Assembly: GCA_965237955.1 (NCBI GenBank)
Contig: OZ250169.1
Span: forward strand, 6,784,001-6,848,000
Source: Candidatus Marinacidobacterales bacterium
Lineage (GTDB): Bacteria; Acidobacteriota; Vicinamibacteria; Marinacidobacterales; SMYC01
Length of the DNA: 64,000 nucleotides
Direction: 5' to 3'
This document shows, in pieces, positions 10,325-18,586 of the stretch. Positions within the stretch are counted from its first letter, which is position 1, and each line of letters starts with the position of its first letter. The translations under genes were made by a program, and so were the position numbers. Below the pieces are notes generated by a model, which ran no database searches, was not told where the DNA came from, and saw nothing but the letters and a program-made list of their open reading frames with translations.

Positions 10325-10489
10325 CTCGGGCTTACATCTGGATCGTACTCGCGAACAAGGACGTCCTTGCTCACGATGCGAAGAAGTCGACACGTCCCTC
10401 CCGCCGGACCAAGAACAGGCATCCCTTGACTTGATCTACGGCGCCGAGTGGGAGGAGTAATGCGGTTCCACGCGAGCCTCGATTCAATG

Positions 10490-11023
10490 TCAGCTCGACG
10501 GCTTCATCAACGCGTCTTGGAGCTCGCGTCGCTTGCCGGGGTCGGGCACCATCCACTGGAGCGCGTACTCGACGGCTTCCGCTGCGGTTCCGACTTTGAC
10601 CATCTTGCGGGCGAGGTCTTCGGGATCTTTGCCGAAGACGATGCCGTCGAAAGGAATGTACAAAATCTTCGCGCCGTCGCTCGAGAGGGGTCGGTGCGTC
10701 GACCCTTTGCTATAGAAGACGACCCGTCCGGCCGGATAAGTCTCGATGACTCCCCCGTCCATGTCGGCGTCGAAGTACTCACCCTCGACGACATAGCTGA
10801 ACTCGCCGCCGGGGTGACAGTGCGGGCCTTGCTCAAGGCAGTTCGACGGCATGGCGAGCATCGTCGGCACGATGCGAGGACCCTGGCGGAAGAAATCCTG
10901 GAAGTCCTCTCCGATGCCATCGAAGTCGATCTTGGACGGATCGAGCTCGCGTGAAAGACCCACGCCAGAGTTTACGAACTTGTCGGATCCGGTAATTTGA
11001 GAAAAGCCATCGAGAAACGTCAT
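10490..11023 (-). CDS. cupin domain protein (ChrR-like cupin)
   Basis: PHCHPGGEFSYVVEGE and GSTHRP cupin motifs; SD GGAG before ATG 11023. Confidence 0.75.
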   Translation of the reverse strand: MTFLDGFSQITGSDKFVNSGVGLSRELDPSKIDFDGIGEDFQDFFRQGPRIVPTMLAMPSNCLEQGPHCHPGGEFSYVVEGEYFDADMDGGVIETYPAGRVVFYSKGSTHRPLSSDGAKILYIPFDGIVFGKDPEDLARKMVKVGTAAEAVEYALQWMVPDPGKRRELQDALMKPSS

Positions 11024-11032
11024 GAGATCTCC

Positions 11033-11074
11033 AAAAGCAAAGAGCCCCGGCTCGCTTCCACGAGTCCGGGGCTC
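11033..11074 (-). terminator. intrinsic terminator immediately upstream of the cupin RBS
   Basis: GAGCCCCGG-ACTCG-TGGAAG-CGAG-CCGGGGCTC followed by TTTGCTTTT on the minus strand. Confidence 0.75.
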
Positions 11075-11153
11075 GGTAGCTTCGCGTCGGTGGCGTTGGG
11101 TCCCCCACAATTGTTGGGGGAAGCACCTTCGCCCTCGCGAAGAGCTATCCCAA

Positions 11154-11195
11154 CTAAGGGGACGCCACCTCCGCGGAAACTGTAGAACTACTCAC
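11154..11195 (-). CDS. putative 13-aa leader peptide MSSSTVSAEVASP
   Basis: GTG 7 nt after GGAGG within GGAAAGGAGGTGGTCTAG; TAG at 11156-11154. Confidence 0.45.
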   Translation of the reverse strand: MSSSTVSAEVASP

Positions 11196-11325
11196 TAGAC
11201 CACCTCCTTTCCGGGCGTTCCAACGAACGACGGACCCAAACCCGTCCGGCTCACGGGGCCGCCCACAACCCGGCTCGGAGCCGCCACGCGCGCCGGCATT
11301 GCGCGCGCAGTCATTCCATGTCCTA

Positions 11326-11354
11326 AAGATGTCGCAGGTTGAGTGTTTTGTCAA
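11326..11354 (-). promoter_or_regulatory. sigma70-type promoter
   Basis: TTGACA-17 nt-CATCTT on the minus strand. Confidence 0.55.
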
Positions 11355-11374
11355 TGAATTTGCGGTAAAGCCGT

Positions 11375-11515
11375 CTTACAGCGAATACGCGGTTGCCAAC
11401 GTTTCACCGCTTTCGATCTTTCGGCGGACCTCGGCTTCCTTGGCAAGAAGCTCAACCTTCGCGCGCGCGACATCGGTAACGGCCTCCTTTGGAACGACGA
11501 TGACAAGAGATCGGT
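11375..11515 (-). pseudogene. C-terminal remnant of an RraA/HMG-aldolase-like protein
   Basis: VIVVPKEAVTDV...AKEAEVRRKIESGETLATAY resembles RraA-family C-termini; boundaries approximate. Confidence 0.4.
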
Positions 11516-11730
11516 GAGTTATGCGCATTGCTTTCCTGCTCCTTCGAATGCTAGATCTACCGCTACGGGGCCCAATGGGATCGTCCTAAACACCTACGCA
11601 TCTCCTACGGGCTCGATGAAGAGAACCAGGCGTTTTTCGAGGCGCTTAACCAGCTCCTGTAGGCGGTTTGTCTTTCTCGCACGAAACTCTTATGCTCAAC
11701 GCCGGCTCCATTCCGCGCGGAGGTGTCGAG

Positions 11731-14136
11731 ATGGCCAGAGGCGACCTAACCGGAAAAGCCTACCCGCTGCCCGATATGGTGGCGAAAGTCACCGGGAAAG
11801 CCAAGTACGCTGAAGATTTTCGGCCCGAAGGACTTCTGTTCGCGAAGGTCCTGTCGTCCCCGATGCCACACGCAAGGGTTCGGCATATCGACTTGGACCG
11901 AGCCTTGGCGATGGGCGGCGTCGTTGCCGTTGTGACGGCCGACGACTTGCCCGAAAAAGATCCGCTCCAGGAGAGCGCACTCACGAACGAACCGATGTAC
12001 GTCGGTCAGCCGATTCTCGCTCTGGCGGCAATAGATGAAACGATCGCGGCTGACGCCATCGAAGCCATCCGGATCGACTTCGAGCCGCTCCCCTTCGTGC
12101 TCGATCCGCTCGAGAGCCTGCGCCCGAGGGGTCCGAACGCGCGCCTCGGCGGCAACATCATGCGCGAAGGCAAAACCCTCGACACCCTCAAATGGACGGC
12201 GGAGGACTTCGCCAACGCAGGAGACGACGAGCTACCGCTCGGAGAGCCCGAAGAAGAATGGGTGGTCGGCGACATCGACGCCGGCTTCGCTGAGGCAGAC
12301 TTGATCATCGATGAGACGCTCTTTCACCAGTCGCAGACGCACCACCCCCTCGAGACGCGAAGCTGCATGGCGTACTGGCAAAACGGCAAGCTTCACATCT
12401 TCCCATCGACGCAGAGTACGGCGCAGACCGCTGCCGGTCTCGCCAGAGAGCTCGACCTTCCGCTCTCGGACGTCGTTCTCGTGAACGCGTACACGGGCGG
12501 AGGTTTCGGGAGCAAAGCCCGCGGCTCCGTGAACATGGCGATGACCGCGCTTCTGTCGAAGAAGGCCGGTGGACGTCCGGTCCTCCACCGAGTCACCCGA
12601 CAAGAGGAAACGGCGATCGGACGCGCACGCCCCGGCTTCCAGGCCCGGGTCAAGATGGGGTTTCGCAACGATGGTCGTATGACTGCGATGGATCTCTACA
12701 TCGTCCAGGACACTGGCCCCTACGGACGGCGCACCGATATCGGCAACGCGGCCGCAGTGGCGCACATCTGCTACACGCCGCTCGCCATGAGGTTCAGGGG
12801 GCTGTCGGTTCTCACCAACACGCCAACGCGTGCCGCGCAGCGCTCACCTGGAGGTGTTCAGCTTTCGGCGATACTCGAGCCCGTCATCGACGACGCGGCC
12901 AAGAAGCTCGGGATCGATCGCCTCGCAATCCGGCGTATCAACGCCCCAACCCACGAGACGACGTACGGCGAGCACGGCGAGCACCTTACGTCCGCCTTCT
13001 CGCAAGAACTCTTCGACAAGGCCGAGGAAACCTTCGACTGGAGCAATAAGTCGCGGCTCAGCGGGCAGCGGCGGGGCTCCATCGTTACCGGTGTAGGTCT
13101 GGGCTACAGCACGTACCACGCGGGCTCGCGCGGCTATGACGGGCTCATGGTAATCCGGCCCGATGGAACACTCCGCATTCAAACAGGAGTCGGAAACCTC
13201 GGAACGGGCTCGTTCGCCGATGTCGCCCGCGTCGCCGCCGAAGAGCTTGGCGTGCCGTGGGACAAATGCGTCGTGACCTGGGGCGACACATCGAAACACT
13301 TGCCGTGGACCGTGATCCAGGCAGGAAGCAACACCACGCACACGGCGTCGCGAGCGAATCTCGCGGGAGCGCTGGATGCCAAACGAAAGATCCAGGAGAT
13401 CGCGGCCATGGATCTGGGCGGCGCTCCGGACGACTACGAGGTCGCTGGCGAGAGGGTGTACCGCAAAGGCAATCGCTCCCGCGGAGTCAGCCTGGCCCGC
13501 GCCGCCGAACGCGCGATCGAGCTCGGTGGCAAGTTCGATGGTCACGAGCTCGCCGATGATCTACACGAGATGACGGTGAACGCGGCGAACGGGCTCGCAG
13601 GACAGGGGCTCATGGGCGTCGCCAAGGACAATTTCGGAGGCGAAGGTCATCTATGGTCCTACGTGGTCGGCTTCGCCAAAGTCGAGCTCGACACCGAGAC
13701 CGCGCACGTAGACATCCTGAATTACGACGCCGTCGCCGACTGCGGGACCGTGATCAACCCGCGGGGGCTCGCGGCCCAGCTCCACGGCGGCGGTCTCCAG
13801 GGTGCCGGGCTGGCGCGGAGCCAGAGATGGGTATTCGACCCCAAGTGGGGTATCGCCCTCGCCGACAAGCTCTACAATGCCAAACCGCCGTCCATCCTCG
13901 ACATCCCGCTCGATATGAGAGCGGACTGGGTGGACCTACCGGACCCAACGACGCCGGTCGGCGCGAGGGGCATCGGTGAAGCAGCGTTCGGCGCCGGCGT
14001 TGCCGCGATCGTGTGCGCCGTTCAAGACGCCATGGGGAAGGAAGCCTTCAAGCGCACCCCGCTCATGACCGACGTTCTTCTCAACATGGTTGAAGGGCGG
14101 CCCCAAGCGTTCAAGATGCTCACCGCGCACGTCTAG
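11731..14136 (+). CDS. xanthine dehydrogenase-family molybdopterin-binding subunit
   Basis: KVTGKAKYAED, SPMPHARV, GGGFGSK, DCGTVINP, QLHGG, GARGIGE. Confidence 0.92.
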   Translation: MARGDLTGKAYPLPDMVAKVTGKAKYAEDFRPEGLLFAKVLSSPMPHARVRHIDLDRALAMGGVVAVVTADDLPEKDPLQESALTNEPMYVGQPILALAAIDETIAADAIEAIRIDFEPLPFVLDPLESLRPRGPNARLGGNIMREGKTLDTLKWTAEDFANAGDDELPLGEPEEEWVVGDIDAGFAEADLIIDETLFHQSQTHHPLETRSCMAYWQNGKLHIFPSTQSTAQTAAGLARELDLPLSDVVLVNAYTGGGFGSKARGSVNMAMTALLSKKAGGRPVLHRVTRQEETAIGRARPGFQARVKMGFRNDGRMTAMDLYIVQDTGPYGRRTDIGNAAAVAHICYTPLAMRFRGLSVLTNTPTRAAQRSPGGVQLSAILEPVIDDAAKKLGIDRLAIRRINAPTHETTYGEHGEHLTSAFSQELFDKAEETFDWSNKSRLSGQRRGSIVTGVGLGYSTYHAGSRGYDGLMVIRPDGTLRIQTGVGNLGTGSFADVARVAAEELGVPWDKCVVTWGDTSKHLPWTVIQAGSNTTHTASRANLAGALDAKRKIQEIAAMDLGGAPDDYEVAGERVYRKGNRSRGVSLARAAERAIELGGKFDGHELADDLHEMTVNAANGLAGQGLMGVAKDNFGGEGHLWSYVVGFAKVELDTETAHVDILNYDAVADCGTVINPRGLAAQLHGGGLQGAGLARSQRWVFDPKWGIALADKLYNAKPPSILDIPLDMRADWVDLPDPTTPVGARGIGEAAFGAGVAAIVCAVQDAMGKEAFKRTPLMTDVLLNMVEGRPQAFKMLTAHV

Positions 14137-17017: not shown

Positions 17018-18586
17018 GCCTCTCCTGCCATTTCAGTGGATCCTCTCGAGGGTGAGACCGCCACAGTTTAGGTAGACGAGACTGATGAGAGCTTCGGCAG
17101 AGTGGAGTCCAAAGCTGCGGTGGCTCAGCAGCCTGATTTTGTTGTTCATTCCTTCGAGTCGGCCGTTGCTGAGTCTCCACGTGACCCACGCGATGACGCC
17201 ATCGAAGTGGCTGCGGATCATCTTCGCCGCGCGTTTGACGGGCTCTATCCTCGAGCTCATAGCGCGCCGCAGCCATCCTCGGAGAAACTTCTTGGCCCAT
17301 GTCTCGGTTTTGTAGGTGTAGAGGTCCATGAAGTCGTCGCGCAGAAGCATGGCGCGGTAGAGGCGACGATTAGCTCGCACCTGCTCGCGGAGCACCCGTT
17401 TGTCTTTCGCGCTGCGGTTGTGTTTGGCCTTGAGAAGGGGAAACTTGGTGTTCTTGAGGTTGCGCCGGGCAGTCCCTTTGAGCTCGCGCACCAGCTCGCG
17501 CCGGGTCTTATCCACGGCCTCGTTCAGATGCTTGACGATGTGGAAGCGGTCAAAGATCACCCGTGCCTGAGGAGCCTTTTTGCCGACGACAGTTATGTAC
17601 GGCTCCCACATGTCCATGCTGACCGCTTCGAGCTCCGCGGCTCTTTGTGGTCCGAGCTTGCGGAAAAACCGCAGCAGCGTCTTGGCCTTGCGCTCCTTTC
17701 CCGCCCAGACGACCCGGCCGCTGAGATGGTCTATTACCACTGTTAAGTACTTGTGGCGTTTGCGGTAGCTGATCTCGTCCATCCCAATCACCCGCAATCC
17801 ATCGAGCTCGCGCCGCTCATCCCGCTGCTCGGCAACCACTCGCTGGATGATCCGTCGCACCGAACGCCACGTCACTCGGAAATAGTTCGCTACGGCGCTG
17901 ACGTCCGTCCTCTGTGCCAGCCACGCTACCTCTTGTTCGAAGCTTTTGGTAAAGCGGCTTCCCTTGTCGGCCCAAGGCACCTTTTCTCTGACCACTCCAC
18001 ACCGCCGACATACCACTCGTCGGATCGAGTAGCGAAGATAGGTCCGGACTCCGAACAGGTCCAAGTGCCGCCAGTAGCGATTGTAGCGATCTTTGTTCTT
18101 GCGGACCTTTCGTCCGCAAATCCCGCACAGAGGCTTCCTCCTCCGTGGTACTACATCCACCACCACTCTGGCTTTGTCCGCCTGGAAGTGGAAACCTCGG
18201 ACCCACAGGCCTTGCAATCCGATGAGCTTGTTGACTAACGTAGTAACGCGCATCGCGGGAACGCTCTTTTCTCTTTCGGAAAAAAAGATTCTAGCGTTCT
18301 CGCCGATGCGCATCTACACATGGCTTACCCTCTCAACCCACGGGCCTCACCAAATGCCACTGCCCCTCAGCGGGAGACGAGGCTGTGGGAAACGCCCCCA
18401 CGGTTCTGGTCGTTCAGACCTTGCTCACGACTGAGTTCTCTTCGAAGCCTGGAAGGGCGTTTTCCATAGCCTCCACTAATCGAGCCCCCCCTTCCTTATT
18501 CCATATGAATTAATCTTTCTTGTATATATATCAGGAGGGGCCAGCCCTCCAACACAAATCAGATCCCCCGAAACGACAGGAGAACC
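17018..18586 (-). mobile_element. ISL3-family IS, copy 1 (true right end may be ~19881)
   Basis: IRs GCCTCTCCTGCCATTTC / GGTTCTCCTGTCGTTTC; near-identical to 37777..39498. Confidence 0.9.
17033..18253 (-). CDS. ISL3 family transposase
   Basis: zf-ISL3 CxxC pairs, IGMDEISYRKRHKY, VSMDMW, FDRFHIVK, SNGRLEGMNNKIR. Confidence 0.95.
   Translation of the reverse strand: MRVTTLVNKLIGLQGLWVRGFHFQADKARVVVDVVPRRRKPLCGICGRKVRKNKDRYNRYWRHLDLFGVRTYLRYSIRRVVCRRCGVVREKVPWADKGSRFTKSFEQEVAWLAQRTDVSAVANYFRVTWRSVRRIIQRVVAEQRDERRELDGLRVIGMDEISYRKRHKYLTVVIDHLSGRVVWAGKERKAKTLLRFFRKLGPQRAAELEAVSMDMWEPYITVVGKKAPQARVIFDRFHIVKHLNEAVDKTRRELVRELKGTARRNLKNTKFPLLKAKHNRSAKDKRVLREQVRANRRLYRAMLLRDDFMDLYTYKTETWAKKFLRGWLRRAMSSRIEPVKRAAKMIRSHFDGVIAWVTWRLSNGRLEGMNNKIRLLSHRSFGLHSAEALISLVYLNCGGLTLERIH

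Follow-up and report, generated by a model that had tools for sequence, protein, structure and literature searches.

The DNA directly upstream of a cupin gene on the minus strand of the 64,000-nt stretch analysed here (the window, within which all coordinates are given) raises the question of whether it is a leader controlling that gene or an RNA gene in its own right and, if the latter, what such an RNA might do with a Shine-Dalgarno (SD) sequence that matches the end of 16S rRNA far beyond the usual length. A first-pass annotation, made from the letters alone, had read a structured, stand-alone transcript of ~290 nt with a promoter, an anti-16S tract, a small open reading frame (sORF) and a terminator; we find all four elements where it had placed them, and its length agrees with the ~287 nt that we obtain (Table 1).

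Table 1. Features of the RNA gene and its downstream neighbour, in window coordinates
Feature	Position	Strand	Remarks
-35 box TTGACA	11354-11349	-	read from sequence
Putative -10 box CATCTT	11331-11326	-	weak, 3/6 of consensus; 17-nt spacer from -35
Whole RNA, ~287 nt	11319..11033	-	conserved block and RNA-run contigs; 5' end inferred
Two 5' hairpins	11309..11271	-	sequence variable; fold and alignment
5' three-way junction domain	11264..11213	-	RNAalifold, 64 rows
P1 helix	11264-11262/11215-11213	-	two-sided changes in 2/3 pairs
P2a helix	11261-11259/11249-11247	-	two-sided changes in 0/3 pairs
P2b helix	11246-11241/11234-11229	-	two-sided changes in 6/6 pairs
Loop UUGGGU	11239..11234	-	P2b loop; predicted pseudoknot 5' strand
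Extended SD	11212..11195	-	18-nt complement of 16S 3' end; includes first base of start codon
sORF GTG...TAG, MSSSTVSAEVASP	11195..11154	-	13 codons + TAG; codons 2-3 are AGT AGT
Long stem	11181..11078	-	AGTTT/AAGCT, CGC/GCG, internal loop, GGTGGCG/CGCCACC; 5' arm is codons 5-11
SD-like motif GGAGGUG	11172..11166	-	within sORF; repeats SD core
Apical multibranch domain	11162..11102	-	stop codon in hairpin loop; takes ~90-nt insertions
Bulge ACCCAA	11101..11096	-	predicted pseudoknot 3' strand; 140 nt downstream of loop
Intrinsic terminator	11074..11033	-	hairpin 11074-11042, then UUUGCUUUU, U-tract to 11033
Cupin gene (Cupin_2)	11023..10490	-	neighbour outside the element; ATG at 11023

One strong copy of the RNA (blastn, E < 1e-19) is present in 22 of 60 related genomes, and the element is single-copy in its own genome. 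The hits fall in 17 of 18 genomes of the same family, 5 of 8 of the sister family, 0 of 28 of a third family and 0 of 6 from other orders; the conserved block spans the RNA only, and where the same RNA turns up in named records, their titles read Candidatus Marinacidobacterales or Vicinamibacteria. A wider pattern, composed of the extended SD, the start codon and a downstream motif, gave at least 120 matches in GTDB genomes and at least 120 in metagenomes, and among the matches listed are Vicinamibacteria, Thermoanaerobaculia, Multivoradales, Eisenbacteria, Krumholzibacteria, Latescibacterota, Planctomycetota and many Bradyrhizobium. These loci are related by descent, and counts across them overstate independence. 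A Vicinamibacteria-specific pattern had 0 matches in another 400 genomes from the assigned phylum, and in family f3 the general pattern matched 0/28 genomes and the bare extended SD 1/28; this reflects either a patchy distribution or overly narrow patterns.

The Bradyrhizobium matches are rreB, for their sORF equals a cloning oligonucleotide in the supplement of the paper describing rreB in Bradyrhizobiaceae and rreR in Rhodobacterales (Hahn et al., RNA Biol 14:1353, PMC5711450). In the literature searched, which left most subscription journals outside, only rreB and CC2171 were found for this family, and the names rreB/rreR are used by the original paper only. According to the accessible parts of that paper, rreB is a 165-nt RNA with a 17-nt SD and a GTG start that co-sediments with the 30S subunit and is weakly translated; changing its start to a stop makes it longer-lived, and in this form it still binds ribosomes. 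The same parts describe a stable 60-nt product, a synthetic RreB peptide that is unstructured and an overexpression that has no growth effect, and they report rre analogues in Alphaproteobacteria only and rreB as having no known function (PMC5711450). The first-pass annotation had not recognised the RNA, which holds in so far as no Rfam family reaches its cut-off at the locus, and does not hold in so far as RNAs of this kind had been published as rreB/rreR.

Is the element a gene of its own? The sequence TTGAC occurs within 200 nt 5' of the SD in 120 of 153 loci, against 23 of 153 in a reverse-strand control, and its distance to the SD clusters at 40–49 nt (36 loci) and 130–149 nt (72 loci). 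A simple promoter and terminator scanner flagged neither the weak -10 box nor the terminator, and the two assignments rest on conservation instead; in the terminator, two-sided changes are seen in 12 of 12 pairs. We infer a transcription start near 11319. The 322-nt stretch folds at z = -4.17, with none of 100 shuffles equally stable. Upstream of the promoter lies a small unannotated ORF (11360-11520, minus strand) with its own SD (AAAGGAGG near 11490), followed by a gene for a xanthine dehydrogenase-family molybdopterin subunit that is divergent from the RNA (11668-14136, plus strand) and, further on, by an ISL3 transposase gene (17033-18313, minus strand).

Contigs from public sequencing runs point the same way. 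Twenty-four runs shared words with the window, 14 of them recorded as RNA, and eight of the 24 were examined, namely seven RNA runs and X21, which is probably DNA. All seven RNA runs, from six studies, yielded contigs within 11052-11304, none of which bridges to a neighbour; in X2, a 253-nt contig matches with zero differences. By comparison, X21 is continuous across 10924-11380. Separate low-depth contigs in the flanking genes were present in three runs, and in X9 the depth is 64 compared with ~3 in the flanks, depth being a poor measure. The runs were picked by words shared with the window, and some contigs stem from relatives; contigs give neither strand nor ends, and uncovered flanks prove nothing. 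In X9 and X21, contigs also join 10453 to 11600 via 19 other letters (10436-10453 / 11600-11631), which is a paralogous or alternative locus without the whole RNA-plus-cupin block.

One of two readings proposed in the first pass was a translation-coupled attenuator, in which a ribosome on the sORF would control read-through into the cupin gene. Here, the cupin SD directly follows the U-tract, so that cupin expression probably needs read-through, and SD-like sequences do precede stops in attenuator leaders. Cupin is the downstream gene in 8 of 21 distinct relatives, but in 6 of the 21 the downstream gene is a convergent, Pfam-named one (M48 or M50 peptidase, MscS, DinB or TypA), in 2 it is another same-strand gene and in 5 it is unnamed. 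Moreover, the terminator formed in three of three constrained folds in which ribosome footprints were blocked (two ribosome positions tried), and no contig from the seven RNA runs bridges to the cupin gene. With its own promoter and terminator, changing neighbours and a conserved block limited to the RNA, the element is thus a free-standing gene rather than a cupin leader, and we consider the attenuator very improbable. The claim of a structured stand-alone transcript, by contrast, is borne out by the fold, the contigs and the conserved block, and the element is very probably a genuine RNA of rre-like type that stands alone and has an sORF under selection.

The tract that was predicted to pair with a typical 16S rRNA does so with the genome's own. 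The 16S gene ends in CUGGAUCACCUCCUUUCU, the only 16S tail in the genome, and pairs with the tract over 18 nt including three G-U pairs; a run of at least 16 nt is reached via wobble only, and pure Watson-Crick pairing extends for 11 nt at most. Of the genome's 5,803 SD-like windows, none outdoes the tract in this pairing except the rRNA antisense and one other site. Another near-perfect anti-16S tract is located at G000:C1:6911149-6911160, without a start codon at SD spacing. The 16S tail is identical in the six related genomes in which it was found (10 checked), and among 23 relatives 43 of the 50 departures of the tract from a perfect complement keep a G-U pair. In E. coli numbering, the last two pairs of the duplex would presumably enter helix 45. 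Since the last pair uses the first base of the start codon, the full duplex and the initiator tRNA should be unable to coexist. In a single-sequence fold, part of the SD pairs with the 5' leader. Extended SD duplexes toward the start codon are known from cryo-EM, with only two extra pairs in the accessible part of that work (PMC13009471).

We also considered the extended SD as a unique marker of this family and rejected it, because it also precedes many ordinary phage genes: most of the 96 distinct matches on viral contigs stand before ordinary genes. Some of these phage genes (viral loci L032-L151) are very short and Lys-rich (e.g. L052, L092, L150). Genes resembling rreB and CC2171 occur on viral contigs too, and three of them adjoin tRNA-Gly.

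In 23 of 23 close relatives the reading frame of the sORF is intact, with insertions of 3 nt only, and the stop, be it TAG, TGA or TAA, always occupies the same alignment column. The same regularity is seen in a set of 159 distinct, non-rreB loci, for which the stop was absent from the search pattern: start codons are GTG (100), TTG (58) and ATG (1), the sORF has 11–17 codons in 158 loci, and the first in-frame stop behind the motif GYNGAGGTGGC follows after 7 nt (114 loci), 6 nt (41 loci) or 10 nt (3 loci). A stop at one of these distances is thus found in 158 of 159 loci compared with 14.2 expected from shuffles, and there is one premature stop compared with 53.4 expected. The premature stop, after six codons, is in L335, possibly a decayed copy or an assembly error; in one locus the stop is lost at a contig end. 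These counts indicate selection on both the open frame and the position of the stop. Translated, the motif gives AEVA in 117 loci and SGGG in 41; one motif in two frames with one stop position ties the stop to the RNA motif and not to the peptide. Hence a point that is new here, namely that the peptide would be secondary to the RNA motif and the stop placement, and that the 13-codon frame is likely translated for the passage of the ribosome rather than for its product. The peptide itself, compared with the hydrophobic toxins of type I toxin-antitoxin systems, is 13 aa long and mostly polar.

The codons following the start are unusual. In codons 2–6 there are 142 in-frame AGT triplets compared with 18 expected, and 6 and 25 in the other two frames, in a genome where AGT makes up 7% of Ser codons. 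AGT occurs in 81 of 123 distinct 15-mers and in all six subgroups (31–100%). As controls, AGT was counted in 80 of the genome's 1,819 SD-led gene starts and, among phage genes that have an extended SD, in 9 of 57, while codons 2–6 of rreB contain it in 0 of 24 cases. This strong in-frame enrichment of a rare codon is likewise new here; it could be accounted for by slow decoding, by serine sensing or by out-of-frame stops.

Within the sORF, the motif GGAGGUG is invariant in the 23 blastn relatives (its first G is kept in 90% or more); the pattern with which scans contributed 136 further loci already contained it. From the end of GGAGG to the last sense codon there are 8 nt in 114 loci and 7 nt in 41, compared with 7 nt between the SD and the start, a value that the search pattern fixes. 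We propose, as a further new point, that GGAGGUG may be a second SD spaced for the terminating ribosome. According to the accessible part of one study, an SD 5' of a stop codon makes mRNA release 50-fold slower and raises stop-codon occupancy (PMC5737721); the spacing here is 2–3 nt longer than that of the SD tested there. GGAGGUG is also paired in the stem, and its conservation could be structural only.

The long stem described in the first pass, with the sORF as its 5' arm, is present, although its bottom helix was put in the wrong register: GTAGTT/AGCTAC is full in 3 of 23 relatives, compared with 22 of 23 for AGTTT/AAGCT at +15. The stem starts at +15 in 21 of 23 relatives and at +18 in 2 of 23. 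Of the finer details, the tandem GA/GA varies among relatives in its 3' half, and of the three apical hairpins the middle one does so. For covariation we used alignment A2, comprising 64 of 85 long-form loci after removal of near-duplicates, long inserts and cut or misparsed rows; alignment A3 has 38 rows. In the 64 rows, 94.3% of cells of the named structure are paired and 27 of 45 pairs show two-sided changes, values that none of 500 shuffles reach; slid controls give 36–57%. The apical domain is variable in length and sequence among relatives, and many long forms have a conserved GTGGCGC hairpin in it. In L016, L018, L020, L022, L242 and L291 it carries extra hairpins of 60–110 nt, the remainder being undisturbed.

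The two domains of the RNA may be brought together by a pseudoknot between the P2b loop and the 3' bulge. At least 4 bp can form in 64 of 64 rows, and none of 5,000 partner shuffles does as well. Loop and bulge change together: a GGGG shift comes with CCCC in five rows, and CGGGC with GCCCA in another five. A tree from the remaining columns requires three changes for the variants, and one common origin for the GGGG/CCCC form is rejected (p-AU 0.03); three co-change events are few. In the unadjusted MAFFT columns, two-sided change is found in 0 of 4 pseudoknot pairs because the loop shifts its register, and the support comes from re-registered loops. If formed, the pseudoknot is predicted to join both domains round a 31-nt linker in which the SD and codons 1–5 lie. 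The fourth new point here is this covarying long-range pseudoknot, which would close a ring round the SD and start track.

Not all relatives have this 5' loop. In the short forms (L161, L197, L222, L226, L227, L236 etc.) the promoter is ~45 nt before the SD and the 5' domain is absent, and the CCCAA bulge, which may have another partner, is kept. In these forms a conserved AAUCCCAA bulge has no evident partner and a sequence that is tRNA-like in look, a reading not supported by ARAGORN, which finds nothing there. A third form with a different 5' domain is represented by planctomycete-type loci (L159, L185, L247 etc.), of which 13 of the 14 with upstream sequence have GGGG/GGGU 5' of the SD and a C-rich 3' bulge; these probably have the same pseudoknot with another ORF frame.

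A plausible explanation for these elements taken together, to which we give a probability of roughly 55%, would be that the RNA is a ribosome-docking mini-mRNA that has anchors at the start and at the stop and whose own slow translation opens it and turns it over. We infer this mechanism from the sequence elements, their conservation and covariation, the open frame and the RNA-run contigs. The 5' loop would pair with the 3' bulge and close the ring, leaving an unpaired track of 31 nt (11212-11182), about one initiation footprint. A free 30S subunit would dock on this track via the 16S tail, and translation from the GUG would likely be weak. The ribosome would then pass the rare AGU codons, unzip the stem from +15 and break the pseudoknot, thereby exposing the internal GGAGGUG that the stem had hidden. 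At the stop, GGAGGUG could re-pair with the 16S tail at an initiation-like spacing and delay release, after which the opened RNA might be degraded or processed, as the rreB precedent suggests. The net effect would be that ribosome holding and the level of the RNA report translation capacity, and possibly the supply of Ser-tRNA(GCU). A bolder extension is that ring-shaped RNAs of several phyla clamp the 30S neck and anchor the ribosome twice, with AGU codons as a timer, so as to sense the level of serine-tRNA or free ribosomes and to keep or let go of ribosomes in response; this we regard as tentative and, taken whole, rather doubtful.

Other readings share parts of this evidence. Translation could release or remodel a trans-acting RNA, with its apical and 3' part targeting other RNAs or a protein, as might be expected from the stable product of rreB, from a CCCAA bulge kept in short forms that have no cis partner for it, from the GTGGCGC hairpin and from the depth in X9, poor a measure as depth is. 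However, neither the length nor the sequence of the apical domain is constant, a processed form did not turn up, and we consider this reading unlikely. Still less likely is an essentially untranslated trap or store for 30S subunits with an incidental sORF. It is related to the other first-pass proposal, a ribosome-trapping sRNA, in which the long anti-16S tract and the sORF were rightly noted, but as a pure trap this is too narrow, because selection acts on the open frame and on where the stop lies. The 18-nt duplex reaching into the start codon, the weak starts and a predicted ring geometry that would hold the subunit all suit a trap, as does the ribosome binding reported for rreB with a stop for a start (PMC5711450, accessible parts). 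The strong conservation of frame and stop, an AGT enrichment specific to the reading frame and the lack of a growth effect of rreB overexpression in the same source do not.

A slightly lower probability again goes to the 13-residue peptide as the functional product, with an RNA structure that merely limits its synthesis, which is how Hahn et al. interpret rreB in the parts of their paper available (PMC5711450). Consistent with such a product, long forms retain the C-terminal (A/V)EVA(S/T)(P/S), and the N-terminus is enriched in Ser, Asp, His and Cys. Yet the 41 SGGG loci use another frame over the same motif, lengths range from 11 to 17 with a freely variable N-terminal half, the conserved codons are free of synonymous variation in the paired stem, and the reported RreB peptide is unstructured. 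The mini-mRNA opened by its own translation remains our preferred reading. The function of rre RNAs has been a standing question since 2016, and this family takes the design far beyond Alphaproteobacteria, while its natural variation, with two frames and one stop position, argues that translation matters and the peptide does not. The candidate pseudoknot, second SD and AGU codons are precise targets for mutation that make the rre question testable. If the ring and the double anchoring are true, the RNA would lend itself naturally to work on the longest possible SD duplex and on SD-delayed recycling.

Among known RNAs, the nearest Rfam entry is CC2171 (RF01867), a Caulobacter sRNA that was Northern-validated in Methylorubrum according to the accessible part of a preprint (bioRxiv 2022.01.24.477521). 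The locus is the best CC2171 match of the genome, at 27.6 bits against a cut-off of 75, and shares with it the GAAAGGAGGUGAUCCAGUG 5' motif, a long stem and a terminator, but the region between SD and terminator aligns poorly and CC2171 has no 5' domain. The actinobacterial sRNA Ms_IGR-5 (RF02471, cut-off 45 bits) has no match at the locus; one extended-SD phage locus matches it weakly, at 19.5 bits. Like the ribosome-mediated attenuators of the trpL type (rnTrpL; PMC6614838), the element has an sORF overlapping a stem, possible sensing codons and an SD-like sequence before the stop, but unlike them it has no conserved downstream operon, and no antiterminator was found in the three constrained folds.

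tmRNA has a short frame with an open 5' part, a stop codon in a hairpin loop and pseudoknots that form a ring. The element resembles it in the short frame, the open 5' part, the position of the stop and the predicted ring; in contrast to tmRNA, it is equipped with an SD and a start codon and lacks a tRNA-like domain, which ARAGORN did not detect at the element in any of 16 loci (the three tRNAs that it found are neighbours of rreB-type loci), and the tmRNA of this genome lies elsewhere.

The closest parallel is with rreB and rreR. A covariance model of ORF and stem (R1, without SD and terminator) scored 53–57 bits on three of four held-out long forms and 15.6 on the fourth, responded weakly to short and planctomycete forms (5 of 10 at the expected place, best E 0.067) and hit 0 of 15 rreB-type and 0 of 6 CC2171-type loci at the expected place. 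Homology with rreB beyond the SD was thus not detected, and it is by analogy that the element would work like rreB. It differs from the 165-nt rreB in its length of ~287 nt, a 110-nt 5' domain and the predicted long-range pseudoknot, in the G-U pairs of the tract, a stronger internal SD and the AGU codons, and in its presence outside Alphaproteobacteria without a tRNA neighbour; the end of its ORF, GCG GAG GTG GC, is similar to the GCT GAG GTC GC or GCT GGG ATC GC of rreB/rreR. Of the features that define the rre kind, the element has its own promoter and terminator, an anti-16S tract running up to the start and a GTG-started, clade-conserved sORF of 13 codons, where the definition has ~14–18. 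Like rreB and rreR as described in the accessible parts of PMC5711450, it is a stand-alone transcript with a terminator, a 16S complementarity that extends into the GTG's first base, and an sORF of 13–14 codons, the 3' half of which forms the 5' arm of a stem.
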